Assembly: GCA_963716725.1 (NCBI GenBank)
Contig: CAVQUB010000015.1
Coordinates: 128,001 to 192,000, forward strand
DNA from: an uncultured delta proteobacterium
Lineage (GTDB): Bacteria > Myxococcota_A > Polyangia > Polyangiales > Polyangiaceae
DNA length: 64,000 nucleotides
Reading direction: 5' to 3'
Part shown: piece by piece, positions 4,799 through 21,343 of the stretch
Position numbering within the stretch: position 1 is the stretch's first letter
Layout of the letters: each line of letters starts with the position of its first letter
Notes under the pieces: model-generated
What the model was told of the DNA's origin: nothing
The model's database searches: none
Seen by the model: only the letters and a program-made list of their open reading frames with translations
Translations under genes and position numbers: made by a program

Positions 4799-5680
4799 GT
4801 GAGCGACGGCCGACACACCGACCCGATCTTGAACGGGGTCTCCAGCTTGGAGCGACCGCTTCGCTTCGCATTGCTGTACCGGGGACACCGCTTCGAGCTG
4901 CGACCCGGCACGCTCGTGATGGGTCGTGGCACGGCCTGCCAATTGGTGCTGGACGACGCCTTGGTGTCGCGCAAGCACGCCGAGATTGAGGTCTCCGACC
5001 GCGCCGCGACGCTGGTGGATCTGGGCAGCGTGAACGGTGTCTTCGTCAACGGCGCTCGCATCGACGGTCGGCAGGGACTGAACCACGGCGACAAGCTGTT
5101 GATTGGGCAGCAAGAGATCACCCTGCTCGCCGGCCAGGCTCCCTCGGTTTTGCCCGAGTCGCCCACGGGGCGACTGTCGGCTGAGACCCTGGTGGGCATC
5201 GAGTCTCCGATTGCGCCGGGCGCGAGGCCCGTCGATGAGTCTGAGCCGACGCATCAAGGAGACGCCCTGGCGCTGCTCGGCGGAGTCGTCGACAAAGTCC
5301 TGGCCCTGGGCCGCGGCGACGAGGCGGAGCGCATCATCGGCCCGTATCTGAAGAACTACCTGGCCACGGTGCAGCGGACCCAAGCGACGACCCCCGAAGC
5401 CGCGGACAAGGCGGTGGGCTATGCGATGAAGCTCGCGAGCGCTACGCGGAAGGGCGACTGGGTGGACTACGCTTTCGCGCTCTACATGGTTTGCCAACGA
5501 CCACTTCCCGGCGCCGTCGTCGACCAGCTCTACACCTTGATGCGGCAGGTCTCGAGCGTGAATCTCAGTCTTCTTCGCGAGTACCTGGGGGTGTTGCAGG
5601 CGGTTTCGACCCGCCTCGGTCCGAACGAGCGCTTTCTTGCCCAGCGGATCGAGGGTCTCGAGCGCTTGGCTTCCGCCTGA
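4799..5680 (+). CDS. FHA-domain protein (paralog 3)
   Basis: MGRG..DALVSRKHA..DLGSVNG. Confidence 0.9.
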   Translation: MSDGRHTDPILNGVSSLERPLRFALLYRGHRFELRPGTLVMGRGTACQLVLDDALVSRKHAEIEVSDRAATLVDLGSVNGVFVNGARIDGRQGLNHGDKLLIGQQEITLLAGQAPSVLPESPTGRLSAETLVGIESPIAPGARPVDESEPTHQGDALALLGGVVDKVLALGRGDEAERIIGPYLKNYLATVQRTQATTPEAADKAVGYAMKLASATRKGDWVDYAFALYMVCQRPLPGAVVDQLYTLMRQVSSVNLSLLREYLGVLQAVSTRLGPNERFLAQRIEGLERLASA

Positions 5681-6159
5681 TCGGCGCGGTGGGCTCGCGC
5701 GCTTGGTTGGCCAGCGATTGGGCCATCGCATCGGCGATCACTTCCCGGAGCGCGGGGTCATCGACCTTGGCGAGGCGCTGCTCGGCGTCTTCCGACAGCT
5801 CGATGGGGCTGGGGATCTGCCGCGGGGGCTCGCGCGGCGCCGGCGACTCGACGGTGCCGGCACGGAAGCGGATGGAACGTTACCGAGAACCCCCTCAGCC
5901 TCAGCTTCTTGGCGATGTCTTCCGCCAAAAATGAGAGCTCTTGTGCCCAGACCGGCGAGGTGACCGTCACGCTCAGCACCCCGCCATCGAGGGCACCCGG
6001 CGCCGAACGCTGCGCGATTCGATCGCCGGCGACCTCCCGCCAGGTCTCGCGATCGAGCGCCACGCCGGCGCGTCGCGCGGCGGTTCGGTGCGCCTGGGAC
6101 AAGAGATGGCCGAGCGGTTCGAGCCCTCCGCGGCTACCAGTTGTCGGGCGCCTCGCCAT
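5565..6159 (-). CDS. DciA/DUF721 family protein, frameshifted near 5876
   Basis: W.EVAG..IA..S.P....GVL.V.V.SPVWAQELSF; continues in a shifted frame as SIRFRAG...DDPALREVIA to TGA at 5565. Confidence 0.75.
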
Positions 6160-6225
6160 GAAGTAGCGAAGCTACATGACCTCCTGCACCTCGGCTAGCG
6201 TACCGATCGCCGCTGGTGCGCGCTG

Positions 6226-6531
6226 ATGCTGACGCTTCGGAATGATGCGTTTCCTTCGGAGGCCGTTCGGGACTTGATCGGGATCCTGCGGGCGCTGTAC
6301 GCCGCCGAGCACGTGGCACGGGCTGACTCGCGACGCGTCCGCGAAGTCGCACGGATCGGCCGTGAGTTGGCGGCCGCGGTGGAGCTGGCGACGGCGCATG
6401 CGCCCGGCACGATGGGGCACGCCGCCGCCTGGTCCCGCGCAGAACGGGCGACCGCAGCCCTCGGGGATTTGGTCGACGCCACGACTCCGCTCGCCCCCAC
6501 GCTCGCGGCCGCCGCGCGCCGAGTGCGTTGA
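6226..6531 (+). CDS. Hypothetical all-helical small protein
   Basis: ORF track, amphipathic helices; lies just upstream of the att site. Confidence 0.6.
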   Translation: MLTLRNDAFPSEAVRDLIGILRALYAAEHVARADSRRVREVARIGRELAAAVELATAHAPGTMGHAAAWSRAERATAALGDLVDATTPLAPTLAAAARRVR

Positions 6532-6572
6532 CCCTGGGAAACCGCATCGAGATCGACTATAGACCCGGGTCC

Positions 6573-6614
6573 CTAGCCGAAGTGGCGGAACTGGCAGACG
6601 CGGCGGATTCAAAA
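6573..6614 (+). repeat. Left att copy: CTA plus 5' half of tRNA-Leu up to the anticodon loop
   Basis: ctagccgaagtggcggaactggcagacgcggcggattcaaaa identical to 9894-9935. Confidence 0.95.
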
Positions 6615-6697
6615 ACGGCACTGAGCGCACTGCAAGCGTCACGCCAGAGCCAAAAACAAGCCCTTCCGAAAACGCGGGCGAGCACGGACTTACCTCA

Positions 6698-6771
6698 TGG
6701 CCCACCCAAAACGGGCTGGTGGGCCACGCCCCGCGACATTCCGCCGCGCCGCAGAGCGAGGGTGGGCCACG
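6698..6771. repeat. Putative integrase arm-type sites, left (GGTGGGCCACG x2 plus one inverted copy)
   Basis: Copies at 6718-6728 and 6761-6771; inverted tggcccaccc at 6698-6707. Confidence 0.7.
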
Positions 6772-6949
6772 GGATCTCGACCCGATCGAAGCGAGTCTCG
6801 CTCGTGCGATCGAGAGCGCGACTGCAGCCGGTGAGTGGAGCGTCGTCGTCGACCTGTCGAGGCTACTGGGCGAGCGCCAACGGCTGCGCGTCGCACCCGA
6901 CGTAGCGAGCCTGGACGCGGCGCGTGCGCGCAAGGATGGTGGCAAGTGA
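6719..6949 (+). CDS. 3' part of an att-spanning ORF (helical C-terminus DPIEASLARAIESATAAGEW..)
   Basis: Frame is open upstream through the att core; stop overlaps the next start (GTGA). Confidence 0.55.
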   Translation: MGHAPRHSAAPQSEGGPRDLDPIEASLARAIESATAAGEWSVVVDLSRLLGERQRLRVAPDVASLDAARARKDGGK

Positions 6950-7176
6950 CCCGCCCCGTCATCCTCGAGCTTGACGGGGTGCGGGTCCACATCGGCGCCG
7001 AGCCCGAGCGGTGCGACGGGTGCGAGGCCGAGCGGCCGGCGACGCTGGTCACGCTGGAGCACTGGCATGGCGGCGGCCCGGTGCGGCTCTGCGGCGCTTG
7101 CATGCTCGCCCTGCTACCAGCGTCCGCCCGAGCTGAAACGCCCCCAGCGAGGCGCAAGCGACGCCGGGCCGGGTGA
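6946..7176 (+). CDS. Small CxxC..CxxC zinc-finger-like protein
   Basis: CDGC and CGAC pairs, basic tail; GTGA coupling. Confidence 0.55.
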   Translation: MTRPVILELDGVRVHIGAEPERCDGCEAERPATLVTLEHWHGGGPVRLCGACMLALLPASARAETPPARRKRRRAG

Positions 7177-7274
7177 TCTCGGACCTCGCCCCTTGGCCGT
7201 GACCTCGTGTCGTGGCCGGTGGGCGGGGCTGAGGCACTGACGCCGAAGCCTGCCGCATCGAAAGGACACACCCC

Positions 7275-7553
7275 ATGAACATCACCAAGACCCCCCGGCG
7301 CATCGTGGCCGAGCGTCGCATCTCGCCGCGACAGGTCGACCACTACGCGGGCGGCGACACCGTCCACGCCACGGAGCTGGCCAAGACCCTCACGATCTAC
7401 GTGGTCACCTGGGACAGCGACGGCCCCGACCCGACGCGCCCTGGCGTGGACGTGCGCCAGGGGCAGCTCGCGCACGAACCCGGCCAAGCGTGGGCGAGCC
7501 GCGAGGGCGCCGAGTCGTGGCTCGCTCGCCAGCTCGAGGGCGACGCCGAGTGA
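7275..7553 (+). CDS. Hypothetical phage-like protein
   Basis: AAAGGA RBS upstream, clean ORF. Confidence 0.6.
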   Translation: MNITKTPRRIVAERRISPRQVDHYAGGDTVHATELAKTLTIYVVTWDSDGPDPTRPGVDVRQGQLAHEPGQAWASREGAESWLARQLEGDAE

Positions 7554-7607
7554 ACCCCCGCGCGCGGTGGCCTCACCCTCGCGAGCCCTGGCACGGCTCG
7601 GCGCGCG

Positions 7608-7862
7608 CTACCTGTATGCCTCACGCCGGTGCAAGACCCGCAGGATCGTCAACGTGCCCGACGTCGGATCGACGGCGAAGCGCACGCGGTAGTCACCCAC
7701 ACGCAGCCGGTGCTCTTCCTCGCTTCCTTGAAGCCGCTTCACGTCCCCGGCGCCAGTGTCGGCGTAGCGTTCGATGGAATCGAGCACTCGCGCCCGATCG
7801 GCGCGGTCAACACCATCCCGGTCCTTCTCCGCGCGTCGCGCCCAAACGATTCTCAGGCTCAC
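7608..7862 (-). CDS. RelE/StbE family toxin
   Basis: DVKRLQG...RLRVGDYRV...ILRVLHRREAYR. Confidence 0.9.
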   Translation of the reverse strand: MSLRIVWARRAEKDRDGVDRADRARVLDSIERYADTGAGDVKRLQGSEEEHRLRVGDYRVRFAVDPTSGTLTILRVLHRREAYR

Positions 7863-8059
7863 GGCTTCGCAAGCCAGCTCGCGCGCACCGCAGGGTGGGA
7901 GACGACGCGCCCTTGACGCACGTCTTCCTTCGCTTCCTCGACCGCCGCACGCTCTTCCTCCGTCTCCGGCTCGTCATCGATCGGAGCGTTCCGAAGCGCC
8001 ACGATCGCCGGGTGCTCCCCGGACAGGAGGGGCGCGGCTTTGGGGACGGGAGGGGCCAT
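7859..8059 (-). CDS. Cognate antitoxin
   Basis: Acidic DDEPETEEERAAVEEAKEDVRQGRVVSH; 4-bp overlap with the toxin. Confidence 0.8.
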   Translation of the reverse strand: MAPPVPKAAPLLSGEHPAIVALRNAPIDDEPETEEERAAVEEAKEDVRQGRVVSHPAVRASWLAKP

Positions 8060-8225
8060 GCACCCCAAGTGTAGGAGCCTCGCCCCGGCCGTGTCACTAA
8101 TCAGGCAACAAACCAGCTAAAAGCAGGCGGCCGGCGTGGCGTCAACCACCCGGCCGCGGACAGGGAGTGAAGGTCCCCGTGATCGACAGCGTAGCAGAGA
8201 ATCTCCGAGCAGAGCGCCGAGCCCG

Positions 8226-8519
8226 CTACACGGCCGAGCGCAACGCGGCACCGGGGAAGCGTCGGGCGTACCTGAAAAGCCAGCGGCTCGAGCTGGTGGC
8301 CATGCTCGACCACGCGACGCACACCGCGGACGTGTTGAGCGCGATCAACGGCTCGACGGACATGTCGCCGGCGCGAACCGCGCGAATGAAACGCCGCGGG
8401 CCGAGGGGGCTCGCGTGCTGATCCACCACGTCGGAATCGCCCAGAAGTCGATCCACCACTTTCGCCGCGACAGCAGCGGCGAGCGCATCAATATAGCCGT
8501 CCAGTGCATGCTCGGTCAT
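8226..8519 (-). CDS. Small gene divergent from the integrase (excisionase/RDF candidate), probably truncated near 8360
   Basis: Position typical of xis; overlaps a head-on ORF 8167-8421. Confidence 0.4.
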   Translation of the reverse strand: MTEHALDGYIDALAAAVAAKVVDRLLGDSDVVDQHASPLGPRRFIRAVRAGDMSVEPLIALNTSAVCVAWSSMATSSSRWLFRYARRFPGAALRSAV

Positions 8520-8607
8520 GCACTCGGTTTTGCGCGTCGCCGGCGTCGAGCGCTAGACGGGACATGCGCTTCGTGGTTGCTTTTGCGCGTCGCGAGACGC
8601 GAGGCCA

Positions 8608-9897
8608 GTGTGCGCGCTGGCGTGTCGGCGGCCGCGGGCGTCGTCGCGGCAGTCATCACGCGGTGCCCAGCTCGACGGCGCGCGCGCCCGCAAGGTGGTG
8701 GACATCATGCAACGGGCCGCTGCCCTCATGGCCGACCGTCCGGCAGATGGTCCGCGCGTGCTCAAGGCGATCGGCGAGGCCGGCGAGCTCGAGGAAGCGC
8801 GCGCGTGCCTGGCCGTGGCAGAGAAGGCCACGAAGCGCAAGGCGCCGGAGCCGGTGTCAGCTGCGCCGGTGGCGACGACGTTCCGCCAGGTGGCCGAGCG
8901 TTGGACGTCGGGCGCGTTGGCGCGAGAGTACCCGGACCATGTTCGAGCCAAGCGCACGGCAGACGACGACGATAGCCGGCTCGCTCGCCTGTACCCCGCG
9001 ATCCAAGACGTTCCGATCGCGGACTTCACGATCGATCACGCGGACGCGGCAATGCGCGCCATCCCCGCCGATCTGTCCAGCTCTTCCCGGCGCCACTACG
9101 CTCAGACGATCGCCCGGGTGCTCGGGCTCGCGGTGTTCCCGTTGCGACTGCTCAAGGTGAGCCCGTTGCCGCGCGGTTGGCTGCCGAAGGTGCGAAGCCA
9201 CAAGGCCACCGCGTGGTTGTACCCGGCCGAAGACGCTGCGCTGCTCAGCTGTACCGAGCTGCCGCTGGCTCACCGGGTGCTGTACGGTTTCCTGTCGCGC
9301 GAAGGGCTACGGCTGGGCGAGGCATCGGCGCTTCGCTGGGGTGACATCGACCTGGAACGCGGCGCCGTTCGGCTCGACGCCAACAAGACGGACGACCCGA
9401 GGGCTTGGGCGCTCGACGCTGGCGTCACTCGGGCGCTCGCCATCTACCGCAAGACAAGGGGCAAGCCCGACGCGGCCCAGCTGGTCTTTCACAACTTCGA
9501 CGAAGCGCACCTGGCGCTGCGGTTCCGTGCGCACCTGGCAGCCGCCGGAGTGGAGCGCGGCGAGTTGTTCGAGCGGACCGCCAAGCGCCGGCCCATCCGC
9601 ACCCATGACCTTCGGGCCACGTTCGTCACGCTGTCGCTGGCTGCGGGGAAGACCGAGGCATGGGTGGCCGACCGCACCGGGCACCGTTCGTCGGTCATGA
9701 TCAATCGCTACCGGCGGGCGGCCCGGACCGCCGCGGAGTTGGAACTGGGGGAGCTGACACCGCTGGACAGGGCCATCCCGGAGTTGTACGAGAGCGCCAT
9801 CGAGCCCACCGGAGGGCCCCAAGGTGGGCCACGGGGTGGGCCACGGACACCGGCCGACGGGCCGACGATTCACGAACCAGCACGAAACATGCACTAG
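8608..9897 (+). CDS. Tyrosine recombinase/integrase (start uncertain)
   Basis: Catalytic set R (EGLRLGE), K (NKT), HxxR (THDLR), H (TGHR), Y (INRY). Confidence 0.93.
   Translation: MCALACRRPRASSRQSSRGAQLDGARARKVVDIMQRAAALMADRPADGPRVLKAIGEAGELEEARACLAVAEKATKRKAPEPVSAAPVATTFRQVAERWTSGALAREYPDHVRAKRTADDDDSRLARLYPAIQDVPIADFTIDHADAAMRAIPADLSSSSRRHYAQTIARVLGLAVFPLRLLKVSPLPRGWLPKVRSHKATAWLYPAEDAALLSCTELPLAHRVLYGFLSREGLRLGEASALRWGDIDLERGAVRLDANKTDDPRAWALDAGVTRALAIYRKTRGKPDAAQLVFHNFDEAHLALRFRAHLAAAGVERGELFERTAKRRPIRTHDLRATFVTLSLAAGKTEAWVADRTGHRSSVMINRYRRAARTAAELELGELTPLDRAIPELYESAIEPTGGPQGGPRGGPRTPADGPTIHEPARNMH
9823..9845 (+). repeat. Putative integrase arm-type sites, right (tandem GGTGGGCCACG, 12-bp period)
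   Basis: Copies at 9823-9833 and 9835-9845, inside the int 3' end. Confidence 0.7.
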
Positions 9898-9935
9898 CCG
9901 AAGTGGCGGAACTGGCAGACGCGGCGGATTCAAAA
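9894..9935 (+). repeat. Right att copy (42 bp)
   Basis: Identical to 6573-6614. Confidence 0.95.
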
Positions 9936-9980
9936 TCCGCTTCTCGAAAGGGAGTGTGGGTTCAAGTCCCTCCTTCGGCA
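9897..9980 (+). tRNA. tRNA-Leu(CAA)
   Basis: Acceptor GCCGAAG/CTTCGGC, anticodon arm GCGGA-TTCAAAA-TCCGC, long variable arm, GGTTCAAGTCC T-arm; CCA not encoded. Confidence 0.96.
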
Positions 9981-10076
9981 CCGATCACCCGAGCGCCCCC
10001 CCGGGTGACGAGTTCAGGCCTCGTTCCCGGAGCGCTCAGCAGCTCTCCGAGAGAGCGGCCTCCAACTGATCGCTCT

Positions 10077-11861
10077 TCACTGCCACGTGATCCCACCATC
10101 TTCGCTGGCCAGGGTCTCGACACGGAGCTTCATGCGCTGGTCGCGCCGCCAGAACAAGAACAACTTGCGGTCGCTGGCGGCGACCCGCAGATCGGTGGGT
10201 TTGCCGTGTTCGTTGGGTGTCACGATCATCGCCGCGCGACCGGGGCCGCGGATGCCGGTGGTGTGAACCCAGATCTGGTCCCGGGCGAGATGCGCAACGA
10301 GTACCAGATCACCCTGGCAAGTCGCGACGCTTTGCTTGGCCTTGCGCTCGGTCGTTACGAAGAGCGGCGCGCCGACTCCGAGTTTCGTCAACCGGTTGCC
10401 AATCGGCAGCATGAGCGATAGCTCCTCGTCGCTGCGAGCCAGGAGCGACGGCGGACAGGTGCCGCAGACGCGGCTCAGATCGGGCATCGGCGCGTCGAAC
10501 TTGAGGCCGAAGAGCTTCGGACCGATGGTGACCAGGTACGACTTCTTGGTGTGACGCGCGACGAAGGGCAGCCAGCGTTCGTTGGCTACGCCGCAGGCGA
10601 TCTCCGGGGCCCGATCCATCGCGAGATCGCCTGGTGGGAGCGGAACTCGCTGGGGCTCCGGCCACCCTTCGGCATTTCGAGGCACGTCGTAGAGCGCGAG
10701 CCCCGCGGAGGCCGCGACCCGCTCGAATACGAGCACCCGGGGTCTGGGGCTGACGACGGCGGCCAGGAGCGTGCCGGCAGGCGTGGGCGTCACGTCGAGT
10801 TTCCCGTCGGGCATCAAGCGCACGAGCGCGCCGCCCGCTCGGCTTGCATCCTTTGGACCGATGGCCAGCGTCGGGACCTCGTGCTTGCCTTGATCCGAGA
10901 GCCAGACCGGAGTGCCGGCCTTCAGGGGCTCGAGCCCCTCGGGCAGTGCCGGGACTTCCACCGCCGCATCGATTCCAGGCGGGTCGCGCGTCACGCGCGC
11001 GACGAAGCTGCGCCCGACGGCGCCGTTGGCGTCCTGCGACGTGACCAGCAGCACGCTCGGTGCGCCGTCGCGCAGGCCCACCAAGGGCGCGTTCGTCGCG
11101 CCGCCGACCCGTCCCATACGTCCCGTGATGAGCTCGAAGCTCTTGCCTTCGTCCTTGGACGAAGCGAGGTGCACGCCGATGCTCTCGCTGTCCCGCTCGA
11201 CGGTGAAGCAGTCGAGTCGTAGGCTGCCATCGGGCTCCGCAGCCGCCTGGAACTTGGCGCTGAGCAGGAACTCCACGGGCTCGTCGAGGACCACTCGCGG
11301 CGTTGGCAGCGGCGGTGTCTCGAAGGCGCGCCCTGCGGAGGGGCATGCCCCGGGTGCCACGGCGCCTTCACCCAGGGCGAGCCGGCAAGCGGACTTGACC
11401 AACCCGTCGATGCGGGTGTCGAGCGCGTCGACTTCCCCGGACAACAGCGCATCCGCGCGCTCGCGAAAGAGCGCCTCGCTGAGCCCGGTCAGCAGGGAGT
11501 CGAGGCCGCGAATGCCGTCGCGGTCGCGAGGCAGGCGCAGGCCGACCAGCTCGCGAGCGTCGCGCTGCACCCGGCCGACGAGGGGAGCGCAGGCGGCGAG
11601 CGGCGTCGACTCCGCCGGCCGCTGCTCGATGGCGTCCCGCAAGGTTGCCGCGTCGGCGCGGACCGCGAAGGCGCACTCGGCGAGCTCGACGCTGGCCAGG
11701 TAGAGCGATTCCGAGAGGACCTTTGCGCGGCTCCGCGACGAGAACCAGGTCGCCGCGAAGGCGACGATGCCCAGCGTCAGAGCGCCCGCCAGCAGCAGAT
11801 CGACCGCCCGAAAACGACGGGCACGAGGCGCTTGTCGTTCGATCGCGGGGTCATCTGGCAC
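10077..11861 (-). CDS. Hypothetical membrane-anchored protein with beta-rich extracytoplasmic region
   Basis: 594-aa ORF, N-terminal TM helix. Confidence 0.7.
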   Translation of the reverse strand: MPDDPAIERQAPRARRFRAVDLLLAGALTLGIVAFAATWFSSRSRAKVLSESLYLASVELAECAFAVRADAATLRDAIEQRPAESTPLAACAPLVGRVQRDARELVGLRLPRDRDGIRGLDSLLTGLSEALFRERADALLSGEVDALDTRIDGLVKSACRLALGEGAVAPGACPSAGRAFETPPLPTPRVVLDEPVEFLLSAKFQAAAEPDGSLRLDCFTVERDSESIGVHLASSKDEGKSFELITGRMGRVGGATNAPLVGLRDGAPSVLLVTSQDANGAVGRSFVARVTRDPPGIDAAVEVPALPEGLEPLKAGTPVWLSDQGKHEVPTLAIGPKDASRAGGALVRLMPDGKLDVTPTPAGTLLAAVVSPRPRVLVFERVAASAGLALYDVPRNAEGWPEPQRVPLPPGDLAMDRAPEIACGVANERWLPFVARHTKKSYLVTIGPKLFGLKFDAPMPDLSRVCGTCPPSLLARSDEELSLMLPIGNRLTKLGVGAPLFVTTERKAKQSVATCQGDLVLVAHLARDQIWVHTTGIRGPGRAAMIVTPNEHGKPTDLRVAASDRKLFLFWRRDQRMKLRVETLASEDGGITWQ

Positions 11862-11886
11862 GCGCGCATGCTACCGTTTTTCTTCG

Positions 11887-12756
11887 ATGCGCGCTCTGCT
11901 CGGAAGCCTGGTGGTCGGGTTGACGTTCGTCGTTGCTGCGTGCAGCGGCGATGACGGCGGCGAGTCGTCGGGTGGCACTGGGGGAAGCGCAGGAGCCGCC
12001 GGCTCTGGCGCGGGCGGCAGCGGTGGCGCGGGCGGCGGCGGCGGCGCGGGCGGCAGCGGCGGCGTGAGCGGCAGCGGCGGCGCGGGCGGCAGCGGCGGCG
12101 CGAGCGGCAGCGGCGGCGCGAGCGGCAGCGGCGGCGTGAGCGGCAGCGGCGGCGTGAGCGGCAGCGGCGGCGTGAGCGGCAGCGGCGGCGTGAGCGGCAG
12201 CGGCGGCGCGGGAGGCAGCGGCGGCGCGGGAGGCAGCGGCGGCGCGGGAGGCAGCGGCGGCGCGGGAGGCAGCGGCGGTGCCTGCAACGATCCCGGGGTC
12301 GAGCCCAACGACAGTATCGTGCTCGCCGTACCGGCGTGCGGCGTTCCGGCATGCGAGATCGGCGACTGCAACGGAGACGGATCGAAGGGCTATGGCGGTC
12401 CGAAGCCGACCATCGTGGGGGTCGTGAGCAGCGCTGACAGCGACCACTTCAGGTTCGACGGCAAGGATGGACTCGGGTTTTGCCAAGTGGATCCCGCGGC
12501 CAAGACCAAGGACTCCGGCTTCCGGCTCTGTATCTTCGTGCAGTGCAAGCACGGAGCCACGAAGGTCAGCGCCTGTCCCGGTGGGCTGGCGGTGGAGACC
12601 AGCGGAGCGCCCGGTTGCTGCGTGAACACCCCGGGCGAAGCGAAGATCGACTACGACTGCAGTGGCAGCATCAACGACGACGACTCGGCGCGGATCGTGG
12701 TGCGCATGGACCAGGCGACGGCGTGCACGCCTTACGCCGTGGACTACCACTTTTGA
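11887..12756 (+). CDS. Lipoprotein with Gly/Ser linker and Cys-rich C-terminal domain
   Basis: VAAC lipobox; EPND motif; many Cys. Confidence 0.8.
   Translation: MRALLGSLVVGLTFVVAACSGDDGGESSGGTGGSAGAAGSGAGGSGGAGGGGGAGGSGGVSGSGGAGGSGGASGSGGASGSGGVSGSGGVSGSGGVSGSGGVSGSGGAGGSGGAGGSGGAGGSGGAGGSGGACNDPGVEPNDSIVLAVPACGVPACEIGDCNGDGSKGYGGPKPTIVGVVSSADSDHFRFDGKDGLGFCQVDPAAKTKDSGFRLCIFVQCKHGATKVSACPGGLAVETSGAPGCCVNTPGEAKIDYDCSGSINDDDSARIVVRMDQATACTPYAVDYHF
12049..12281 (+). repeat. 18-bp coding tandem repeat (GSGGVS/GSGGAG/GSGGAS)
   Basis: About 12-13 units of ggcagcggcggcg(t/c)g(a/g)g(c/a). Confidence 0.85.
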
Positions 12757-19816: not shown

Positions 19817-21343
19817 TCAGGACGGCGGGAGCCGCTTCTCTCGCAGATGCCAGGCGATCCGGAGAGCCATGCTCATGATGCTGAGCTGCGGATTCACGCC
19901 CAAGCTCGAGGGCAAGATGCTGCCGTCGGCCACGAAGAGCTCGGGCAAATCCCACGCTTGCCCGAAAGGATCCACCACCGAGGCTTGGGCAGAAACGCCC
20001 ATGCGGCAGGTCCCGAGGGGGTGCTGAGAGCTGCTCTCGAGGGCGGTCGCCGGGACGTGATCGAGATCGACGCTCGCGAGTCCATCGCGATCGATGCCGC
20101 CTAGCCCCAAGATCGGCAGGTACACCTCCTCGGCACCGCCCGCGAAGAAGGCCTCGGCCATGCGACGCATGAGCACCGGGATCGCGGCGCGATCTTTGGG
20201 CGCCATGCGGTAGGTCATGAATGATCGATCGAAGAGCGTCTGGACGCGGCCGCCGCCTTCGTCGTGGATCATGCCGCCGAAGATCGCCATGTTCGGAATG
20301 GAAGCGGCGACGCGTTGGTGCGCGAGCCCGATGCCGGGGAGCGTGCCCGCCAGGGCGCCCGGCGGGATGAAGAGGCTCGTCATGGTGATGCGGTCGCGTT
20401 CGAGCGCGTCGGAGTAAGCGCTCTGCAGCGCGCCCTTCCAGCCCTCGACCGGGTCTTTGAAGCGCGCCATGACGCGGAAGCCGGGATGCAGCGTCATGTT
20501 GCGCCCGACTTGCCCGGAGCGCCGGCCGATGCCGCTGCGCTCGAGCAAGAGCGGGGAGGCGTAGGCCCCCGCGGCGACGACGACGCGTCGTGCGCGCACC
20601 CGGAGATGGCCCCGAGCTTTCTTGTGCGGGCCCGAGAGCAAGCGCCCGACGACGCCGCTCGCACGGCCCCGCGTGGCGAGCACCCGGTCGACGCGACAGT
20701 CGGAGTAGAGCCGGGCGCCTGCCGCCAGCGCTCGGGGCAAATAGGTGAGGTCGACGCTGAGCTTTGCGCCGTGCGGACAGCCGAAGTTGCAGCGCCCGCA
20801 GCCGTTGCAGCCCTTGGTATTGCGCCGCATGGGCTCCCAGCCGAGGCCGATGGCGTCCAGGCCTTTCAGGAAGTGCTGGGTGGACCGCGAGCGCATCGCC
20901 GCCGGGACTTCTTCGACGTGGATCCGGCGCTCGACCTCCTCGAAGACGGCCTCCATCCGCTTTGGACTGATGTCTTCGAGCCCGTGATGGGCCGCCCACT
21001 CGTGCATCACTCGATCGGGGATCCGAAAGCACACGCCGCCCGTCAGTACCGACGAACCACCGACGCACTGGCCCATCATCACGTTGATGACCGGCGTGTC
21101 GCCCAGGCCGACGGCGAAGGTGAGGCCCGCGTCGCGCCACATATGACGCAGGTTCTCGCTCGGTCGCATGCGCCCGTAGCGCTCCGGCGGAACGAAGGGG
21201 CCTTCTTCGAGGATCAGGACGCTCTGTCCAGCCTCGGCCAATTCCGCTGCGACCACCGCGCCGCCGGCGCCCGAGCCGATCACGACCACGTCGGCGTCGA
21301 GGCTGAGATCGCCCGCCTGCGCTCGTCCCTCGATGATCGTCAT
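19817..21343 (-). CDS. GMC family oxidoreductase
   Basis: GSGAGG, VGGSS, C.GCG.C.FGC, HPLGTCRMG, GVNPQLSI. Confidence 0.92.
   Translation of the reverse strand: MTIIEGRAQAGDLSLDADVVVIGSGAGGAVVAAELAEAGQSVLILEEGPFVPPERYGRMRPSENLRHMWRDAGLTFAVGLGDTPVINVMMGQCVGGSSVLTGGVCFRIPDRVMHEWAAHHGLEDISPKRMEAVFEEVERRIHVEEVPAAMRSRSTQHFLKGLDAIGLGWEPMRRNTKGCNGCGRCNFGCPHGAKLSVDLTYLPRALAAGARLYSDCRVDRVLATRGRASGVVGRLLSGPHKKARGHLRVRARRVVVAAGAYASPLLLERSGIGRRSGQVGRNMTLHPGFRVMARFKDPVEGWKGALQSAYSDALERDRITMTSLFIPPGALAGTLPGIGLAHQRVAASIPNMAIFGGMIHDEGGGRVQTLFDRSFMTYRMAPKDRAAIPVLMRRMAEAFFAGGAEEVYLPILGLGGIDRDGLASVDLDHVPATALESSSQHPLGTCRMGVSAQASVVDPFGQAWDLPELFVADGSILPSSLGVNPQLSIMSMALRIAWHLREKRLPPS

Follow-up and report, generated by a model that had tools for sequence, protein, structure and literature searches.

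A 3.3-kb element in a Polyangiaceae genome that very probably supplies the 5' part of its target gene, tRNA-Leu(CAA)

Mobile DNA lands in tRNA genes more often than anywhere else, and usually the element supplies the 3' part of the gene and the gene keeps its promoter. Here we describe a different arrangement in a stretch of 64,000 nucleotides from an uncultured member of the Polyangiaceae (contig CAVQUB010000015.1, positions 128,001 to 192,000; hereafter the window). A tyrosine integrase gene (int) leads directly into an intact tRNA-Leu(CAA) gene, and a second copy of the 5' half of that tRNA gene stands 3.3 kb further upstream. ARAGORN found one tRNA in the whole window, this tRNA-Leu(CAA) on the plus strand with its anticodon at position 35, and the same gene is the sole Rfam match (54.1 bits; gathering score 29). 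The anticodon CAA occupies 9931–9933 in the 7-nt anticodon loop TTCAAAA (9929–9935). We conclude that positions 6573–9893 are very probably an integrated element of 3,321 bp that entered a chromosomal tRNA-Leu(CAA) gene and supplied its 5' part. The element would be a compact and fully delimited exception to the 3'-part rule, and its small size makes it easy to test.

The limits of the element are set by an exact 42-bp direct repeat, 6573–6614 and 9894–9935, made up of CTA and positions 1–39 of the tRNA. A first-pass annotation of this DNA had described the repeat as three upstream bases plus the tRNA from position 1 to the anticodon loop, and the sequence, ARAGORN and the repeat search agree on this. 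The repeat search itself returned 47 nt at 96% (6573–6619 versus 9894–9940) with mismatches at 6615/9936 and 6617/9938. The repeat copies are spaced 3,321 bp from start to start, within the 2–200 kb length range of the Islander collection. With up to three mismatches allowed, the 39-nt tRNA part was found twice in the window, both times exactly (6576–6614 and 9897–9935), and the remaining 47 nt of the tRNA (9936–9982) once; none of 100 dinucleotide-preserving shuffles gave two or more matches of the 39-nt part. The identity of the two copies stops at the last base of the anticodon loop, after which the left copy reads ACGGC and the 3' stem strand of the tRNA reads TCCGC. The displaced piece is an end fragment of the tRNA gene (positions 1–39) in direct orientation, 3.3 kb upstream of the full gene, and the coordinates confirm the earlier placement of the truncated copy on the left (6576–6614) and of the intact gene on the right (9897–9982). 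This is the configuration by which Islander defines an island: a full tRNA gene (tDNA) and its cognate fragment on one replicon and in the same orientation, a 5' fragment lying upstream.

Between the two copies a single intact int open reading frame (ORF) is found, which is not split by integration. Its product matches Pfam PF00589 (Phage_integrase, 5.6e-13) and PHROG 1 (integrase, 1.4e-24) and remains far below the cut-offs of the NCBIfam models for XerA (38 against 220 bits), XerC (19.4 against 335) and the integron integrase (22.2 against 265). Judged by these matches, Int is a tyrosine integrase and neither a Xer nor an integron equivalog. Residue numbers follow the database copy of the protein (P0001), whose start is ATG 8707. 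Six residues, R202, K227, H300, R303, H326 and Y335, are invariant among 35 aligned family members, and they align to XerA (5hxy) with an E value of 5e-9; this alignment needed a profile, and a search of the PDB with the single sequence gave 0 matches. The AlphaFold2 model of Int has a mean predicted local distance difference test score (pLDDT) of 86.4 and a confident core; Foldseek matched the fold to XerA, lambda Int and Tn1549 Int. Its N-terminus, modelled from ATG 8707, consists of three helices; at the other end residues 365–396 have no predicted secondary structure and the block-mean pLDDT is around 50 from residue 371 on. In the plasmid collection Int had weak matches in 11 records, the best being 23% identical over 63% of the query. 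The G of the int stop codon TAG is at the same time the first base of the tRNA, as the first-pass annotation had stated, and the predicted crossover at 9929–9935 lies 32–38 nt downstream of this stop and outside the int reading frame. Since the stop codon is inside the repeat, Int would be identical in the integrated and in the circular form.

A further link between the two ends is the 11-mer GGTGGGCCACG, of which the window holds four exact copies, at 6718, 6761, 9823 and 9835, where 0.11 are expected; 0 of 100 shuffles gave four or more. All exact copies are confined to the two arms, within about 160 bp of the repeat core. In the predicted circular form two copies would stand 48–71 bp before the core and three, one of them an inverted near copy, 82–157 bp after it. 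They are laid out as arm-type sites of a lambda-type attP would be and are candidate binding sites. The right-arm pair is translated as part of the Int tail, and the corresponding peptide pattern GGPxGGP occurs in 7 of 119 homologue tails (defined below), 31–39 residues past the catalytic Tyr, and in 0 protein bodies, which suggests that what is conserved is a DNA element and not a protein motif. The claim of an integrative element is thus borne out by a Phage_integrase protein between a full tRNA gene and its cognate 5' fragment, by the 11-mer of the arms and by the layout of relatives.

We propose that a tyrosine integrase inserted the element into a chromosomal tRNA-Leu(CAA) gene by recombination in the anticodon loop. 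The attP of the element would have carried the 5' part of the tRNA (three upstream bases and positions 1–39) directly after int, with the 11-bp motif in both arms, and crossover would have taken place in the 7-bp loop TTCAAAA. It is placed in the loop because the identity of the repeat ends at the loop edge and because the tRNA-derived peptide of relatives ends at the anticodon arm. The working tRNA gene (9897–9982) would then consist of the 5' part of the element joined to the 3' part of the host, and the host's own 5' part, together with its upstream region, would have been left 3.3 kb away at 6573–6614. From this geometry the tRNA would be severed from its native promoter, which would now read through the displaced fragment into the left-end genes orfA, orfB and orfC. 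Transcription of the tRNA would begin within the element, as read-through from int or at a promoter within the 3' region of int, and RNase P would then release the tRNA. A ParE module in the element may help its retention. The features are collected in Table 1.

Table 1. Predicted features of the element and its attachment (att) sites; positions refer to the window. GC3, GC content at third codon positions; aa, amino acids.
Feature	Position	Strand	Remarks
attL, left copy of the 42-bp repeat	6573–6614	+	6576–6614 is the displaced 5' fragment of tRNA-Leu(CAA), positions 1–39
attR, right copy of the 42-bp repeat	9894–9935	+	probable crossover region is the anticodon loop, 9929–9935
Intact tRNA-Leu(CAA)	9897–9982	+	probable composite of element-derived 5' part and host-derived 3' part
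Tyrosine integrase gene (int)	8608–9897	+	start GTG 8608 or ATG 8707; stop TAG 9895–9897
Left-arm cluster of GGTGGGCCACG (P'-arm in the predicted attP)	6696–6771		6718–6728 and 6761–6771, + strand, exact; 6696–6706, − strand, one mismatch
Right-arm pair of GGTGGGCCACG (P-arm)	9823–9833, 9835–9845	+	inside the int tail, read as GGPRGGPR
Candidate −10 of the native tRNA promoter, TATAGA, weak	6558–6563	+	12 nt before base 1 of the displaced fragment; 7/12
Candidate element-borne tRNA promoter, TGGACA-N17-TACGAG, weak	9764–9792	+	inside the int 3' region; 8/12
orfA, 76 aa	6719–6949	+	residues 21–71 match the C-terminal domain of long integrase homologues; GC3 0.74, ambiguous
orfB, 76 aa	6946–7176	+	two CxxC pairs; GC3 0.86; GTG start overlaps the orfA stop (GTGA)
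orfC, 92 aa	7275–7553	+	strong coding signal, GC3 0.92
ParE/RelE-type toxin, 84 aa	7608–7862	−	PF05016, 3.5e-10, 40.7 bits against a cut-off of 23; PHROG 1213 RelE-like toxin, 9.4e-13
Candidate antitoxin	7859–8097	−	start ATG 8059 or TTG 8068; overlaps the toxin start; role assigned by position
Small ORFs on opposite strands	8167–8421; 8226–8519	+; −	not distinguished by GC3; no Pfam family

The statement of the first-pass annotation that most tRNA-targeting integrases restore the 3' part agrees with Islander (Hudson, Lau and Williams; PMC4383910), whose Table 1 assigns 3,760 of 3,919 islands to the 3'-fragment type and 159 to the 5'-fragment type, and with PMC6563490, where 5'-distal recombination is described as "considerably less frequent" with reference to Zhao and Williams (2002) and to archaeal cases. 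According to PMC4383910, Islander also contains 2,083 islands with anticodon-centred sites, and its configuration filter looks for 5' fragments on the upstream side of the gene. The 5'-fragment islands resemble the window in having a full tDNA, an upstream 5' fragment in direct orientation, a tyrosine integrase between the two and an anticodon-centred att site; with 3.3 kb the window passes the 2-kb filter of Islander but is at the small end, and its int stop overlaps base 1 of the tRNA. The novelty that the first-pass annotation implied was too high, as the 5'-fragment arrangement had already been catalogued there. The element is a new case of a known, rare and already catalogued arrangement and not a new kind. 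PMC6563490 cites Zhao and Williams (2002) as the case from bacteria in which the 5'-distal part of a tRNA gene recombines, and in this respect that case is like the window. In archaea, the pTN3-like integrases use the tRNA 5' half as attB (that of tRNA-Leu in pTN3), and the integrase promoter drives the reconstituted tRNA; the same source describes 5'-half use as seldom met in bacteria (PMC8371274). The pTN3-like and TKV4-type archaeal elements thus share with the window the tRNA 5' half as attB. However, the integrases of these archaeal elements are of the "suicidal" SSV type, encoded by a gene that includes att and is split by integration, whereas the window int remains whole in a high-GC bacterium. 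Beyond the literature seen may lie the apparently frequent and repeated switching between 5' and 3' parts in one Mx8-related family, the overlap of stop codon and tRNA, and the relocated C-terminal domain, as far as these can be predicted from the proteins and DNA at hand.

The integrase family was surveyed through the tails of its predicted proteins. Among 8,000 candidates scored, at least 1,130 are homologous to the window Int at E ≤ 1e-20, the best about 60% identical; a related integrase comes from a metagenome-assembled Polyangiaceae genome. As stop codons are infrequent at such a GC content, many predicted proteins run past the integrase into adjoining DNA. Many database "integrase" proteins of 450–600 aa end in peptides that are translated from adjacent tRNA genes, sense or antisense. 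We took as tail the sequence after the catalytic Tyr, which gave 119 tails from 120 listed homologues (P0077 is without the motif), and compared the tails with six-frame translations of the window tRNA at E ≤ 0.05; labels beyond these BLAST matches are our own reading of the peptides. The first-pass annotation had suggested a survey of homologous integrases for 5'-half att sites, and such sites were indeed indicated by sense-frame tRNA matches in seven tails (P0007, P0016, P0045, P0049, P0100, P0110 and P0113), to which a second round seeded with these seven tails added P0047, P0104 and P0116 with 0 control matches. Antisense-frame matches were commoner (19 tails). The tRNA-peptide queries had 0 matches in protein bodies and 0 in reversed tails. 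Extended by peptides of the T-arm and anticodon arm as soft labels, the count is 18 sense tails including the window, 46 antisense tails (by motif) and 55 unknown ones. The T-arm peptide G[IFLV]EP, used as a soft label only, has 21 matches in tails against 1 in bodies. A T-arm test by degenerate back-translation was discarded as too permissive, with 126 and 129 matches in 45,079 aa of control bodies.

In a FastTree phylogeny of the integrase cores the sense and antisense labels are interspersed, with at least 11 changes, 8 of them forced by well-supported branches; the window Int forms a lone deep branch. The supplied side of the tRNA appears to have been switched repeatedly within this integrase family, as far as predicted proteins can tell. 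One integrase family seems to hold both layouts, and a phage relative described below uses the same loop with the opposite half. The family would be a natural system for finding out what fixes the orientation of tRNA att sites and what it costs the host.

Several long homologues read as an integrase, a tRNA-derived block up to the anticodon arm, unrelated sequence and a conserved C-terminal domain. The tail of P0066, which is antisense, reads ...VPKVGLEPTGPFGQRILKP (with ...GLEPTGPFGQRILKP at the anticodon arm) and then diverges; that of P0013 continues ...RILSPSRLPIPPLRLV through the whole tRNA, and P0013 is, so read, the integrated form. In P0029 (our own reading) and P0116 (a second-round match and our own reading) int is followed by the sense 5' half of the tRNA, divergence past the loop and an orfA-like domain. 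Predicted from these two proteins, this layout is the attP form of the window's type. By our own reading, the single long ORF of about 19 of the 120 listed homologues crosses att and continues into a conserved domain some 50 aa long. Such long tails are either over-extensions made by gene callers at high GC content or parts of real int genes that cross attP, like that of Mx8. The window has a counterpart of this domain at its far end: in BLASTP, orfA is 52% identical to residues 494–542 of P0084 (E 1e-8) and 49% identical to residues 504–549 of P0066 (E 5e-9). Because orfA matches the domain that lies beyond att in relatives, the order of int, core and domain seems to be conserved, and integration would have moved the domain to the far end in the window. 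The orfA frame is open from 6563 across the tRNA fragment, where it reads SRSGGTGRRGGFK, and this is the frame in which the ORFs of the sense relatives cross the tRNA 5' half. Among the longer proteins of a set of 5.8 billion, orfA had no match at E ≤ 0.001, the domain being too short for a database of this size.

In the myxophage Mx8 the target is a tRNA-Asp gene, of which the 3' end is used. The window Int is 30% identical to the Mx8 integrase over 47% of the query (E about 5e-4); P0066 matches Mx8 Int with an E value of 2e-15, and the peptide GLEP, which we read as T-arm antisense, is aligned in both tails. The C-terminus of Mx8 Int has no similarity to orfA (E 12). According to PMC6070905 and PMC4383910, the Mx8 attP lies inside its int gene (IntP). 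In Mx8, so described, and in many homologues of the window Int the gene extends across attP, whereas the window int stops before the crossover; the C-terminus of Mx8 Int changes on integration, and the window Int, with its TAG inside the repeat, is unchanged. Taken together, the predicted proteins suggest a large integrase family with Mx8 Int as a distant relative. Its int genes would end next to attP or run across it, and the tRNA block beside int would be the 5' part in sense in some members and the 3' part in antisense in others.

DNA of relatives is at hand for two loci. A scan of genome contigs with the 39-nt tRNA 5' half returned a single locus (L001) in a Deltaproteobacteria genome assembled from a metagenome. 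It contains an intact tRNA-Leu(CAA) that is 94% identical to that of the window over 87 nt, and blastn, tblastn and tblastx found no shared flanks, so that only the tRNA is in common. The window repeat runs three bases past the tRNA (CTA at 6573–6575 and 9894–9896), and L001 has CAA at this place. The CTA extension may be due to chance (1 in 64) or may be a trace of the event by which the element acquired the host 5' half.

The second locus is in the virus Rctr16k (KX853514.1, L002), a partial genome record of 16.7 kb that is tailed-phage-like, with tail, terminase and replication genes. Its integrase, the closest annotated one, shares 53.8% identity with the window Int over 76% of the query (E 8e-84). 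On the same strand as the integrase gene and some 600 bp beyond its end, positions 7565–7620 hold a 3' fragment of tRNA-Leu(CAA) (78.6% over 56 nt, E 2.6e-6), which begins in the anticodon loop and reads ...CTCAAAATCCG...TTCGGCACC; no whole tRNA gene was detected in the record. The region 7440–7700 is attP-like and is without an annotated feature. Read by eye, the core is flanked by TGTCCAC twice (about 7452–7476) and by GTGGACAGTT twice (about 7672–7693). With a related integrase next to such a fragment, Rctr16k would therefore use the same tRNA and the same loop as the window element, but carry the conventional 3' half. It is like the window in its integrase, its tRNA-Leu(CAA) target, the site in the anticodon loop and the short repeats flanking the core; unlike the window, it carries the 3' part and has a gene on the opposite strand between int and the tRNA fragment. 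In Rctr16k we found nothing that corresponds to orfA, orfB or orfC.

Other explanations of the locus have to be weighed against these data. If the repeat were not an att pair, it would have to come from chance, from an assembly duplication or from a stray tRNA pseudogene fragment near an integrase, which we regard as extremely improbable: an exact 39-nt duplicate was not reached in any of the 100 shuffles, the copy derives from an end of the tRNA gene, has the same orientation and lies on the side where a 5' fragment belongs, its limit coincides exactly with the edge of the anticodon loop, the arm motifs are common to both ends only, and the domain at the far end (orfA) matches sequence just past att in relatives. 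A conventional 3'-type island to the right of the tRNA, with the left fragment unrelated to it, is hardly credible either; nothing in its favour was found, no further copy of the 47-nt 3' part of the tRNA (up to three mismatches allowed) occurs in the window, which reaches 54 kb rightward, and the only integrase near the tRNA lies on its left. A third explanation shares the origin that we propose and does not conflict with it: the locus may now be a fixed, defective relic of a larger element or prophage that is held by its toxin-antitoxin pair, has lost excision and has rewired the tRNA permanently. We consider this possible without favouring it, and part of what speaks for it also weighs against our own proposal. 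The element has only 3.3 kb, and no excisionase, replication or transfer gene was recognised in it with Pfam, PHROGs, NCBIfam or relaxed Pfam scans, whereas the record that holds the related Rctr16k integrase spans at least 16.7 kb and includes genes for tail, terminase and replication. Where int begins is uncertain, as an in-frame TAG (8554–8556) immediately precedes a stretch that still aligns with the N-termini of some homologues, and the N-terminus of the window Int has diverged so far that the motif [IV]R[FY]G...RRRF of many homologues is not recognisable in it. In the predicted circle int stops at its TAG and orfA is in another frame, unlike in the fused relatives (about 19 of the 120 listed homologues); no fused protein is therefore predicted for the window, and the element may be decaying. 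The window Int stands alone in the protein collection (a singleton of 1 member on 1 contig), so that the window element is only putatively mobile. Three more points count against our proposal, namely that the scan of genome contigs with the 39-mer found no empty site, its one locus being non-syntenic, that the GC content profile shows no clear boundary of the element, and that the tail survey uses predicted proteins, with labels beyond the BLAST matches read by ourselves. On the other hand, the 42-bp repeats that are still identical, all six catalytic residues with a confidently modelled core, and four exact arm motifs speak against a relic; and many homologues, as predicted, start near the equivalent of 8608, so that the N-terminus need not be truncated. 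We therefore retain an integrated element that supplied the 5' part of the tRNA as the most probable explanation.

For the expression of the tRNA, the question is what transcribes it from inside the element. TTG accounts for 118 of 1,085 leucine codons (10.9%) in 21 long ORFs, and the tRNA is therefore used but not heavily. After such an insertion, the tRNA for these 10.9% of leucines must be transcribed from within a 3.3-kb guest, and the former tRNA promoter points into the genes of the guest. In the bacterial case of Zhao and Williams, the element reportedly must supply the promoter. At the left end of the window element the candidate −10 box of the native promoter is one of many, as sites that score 7/12 occur about twice per kb and strand in the window; the tRNA of L001 is preceded by TTGAGC-N17-TACATC, also 7/12, which ends 11 nt before base 1 and is similar in geometry only. 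At the right end the candidate at 9764–9792 might be a dedicated promoter in the int-proximal arm that serves the tRNA in place of read-through from int, which would make the supply of the tRNA independent of int regulation. This seems conceivable to us, if on the doubtful side. The candidate is the best plus-strand match within 300 nt upstream of the tRNA, and 8/12 sites occur 0.34 times per kb and strand, so that about 0.1 would be expected in 300 bp. However, it lies in codons of the conserved LDxAIPEL segment and may be a by-product of coding, a strict scan gave no plus-strand promoter-like site in 6200–10300, and consensus matching is weak evidence at about 70% GC. In the loose scan the promoter-like matches at both ends are at background level, which adds to the points against our proposal. 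No terminator-like site was found between 6200 and 10186, and orfA, orfB and orfC are all on the plus strand downstream of the displaced tRNA fragment.

Going further, we speculate that integration is a two-way expression switch built on the tRNA, an unlikely reading that draws on the overlap of int and tRNA, the moved domain and the apparent repeated switching of sides. The tRNA would be matured from int read-through, and the RNase P cut would leave the int message without its stop codon. Integrase output would in this way be curbed only when the element is integrated; the circle would have no whole tRNA, and its int message would keep the stop. In the sense relatives, judged by their predicted tails, int reads straight into the tRNA. 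The C-terminal domain that belongs to int in relatives would at the same time be carried to the far end, as orfA, behind the host tRNA promoter.

The remaining genes of the element gave few family matches. Neither orfA nor orfB belongs to a family in Pfam, PHROGs or NCBIfam scans; the top Pfam match of orfB, Endonuclease_7 (E 0.021), is under its cut-off. For orfC there was no match in Pfam, PHROGs or NCBIfam, and its best score in the ESM Atlas (0.81) is uninformative. The candidate antitoxin next to the ParE/RelE-type toxin has no family match in Pfam, including a relaxed scan, and relaxed Pfam scans of the small ORFs gave nothing above the cut-offs. Directly upstream of the candidate antitoxin lies a promoter-like sequence, GTGACA-N18-TACACT (8097–8068, minus strand), with 9/12 consensus matches. 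The strict promoter scan found 2 sites against 0.1 expected in shuffles.

Upstream of int a promoter-like site is found on the minus strand at 8519–8490, as well as two sets of direct repeats, GATCCACCAC at 8420 and 8450 (with a third copy at 19969) and TTTTGCGCGTCGC at 8528 and 8581; the paired repeats at 8420–8593 may be operator sites. The stretch that follows the TAG at 8554–8556 (TGHALRGCFCASRDARP...) bears a faint resemblance to the N-termini of some homologues, P0039 and P0066 among them, and positions 8554–8607 contain no canonical start codon ahead of GTG 8608. A search for the Int N-terminal domain in other frames upstream of 8608 was set aside as noise, as matches came at similar rates in all six frames. 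To the left of the integration site the host genes encode an FHA-domain protein (4799–5680, plus strand) and a DciA-family protein (5758–6159, minus strand), followed by an ORF of 101 aa (6226–6531, plus strand) that has no assigned family and stops 42 nt short of the left repeat. To the right, an ORF of 329 aa (11767–12756, plus strand) encodes long Gly/Ser/Ala repeats of the GGSGGAGG type, with a local GC content of up to 0.815 and a strong GC skew.

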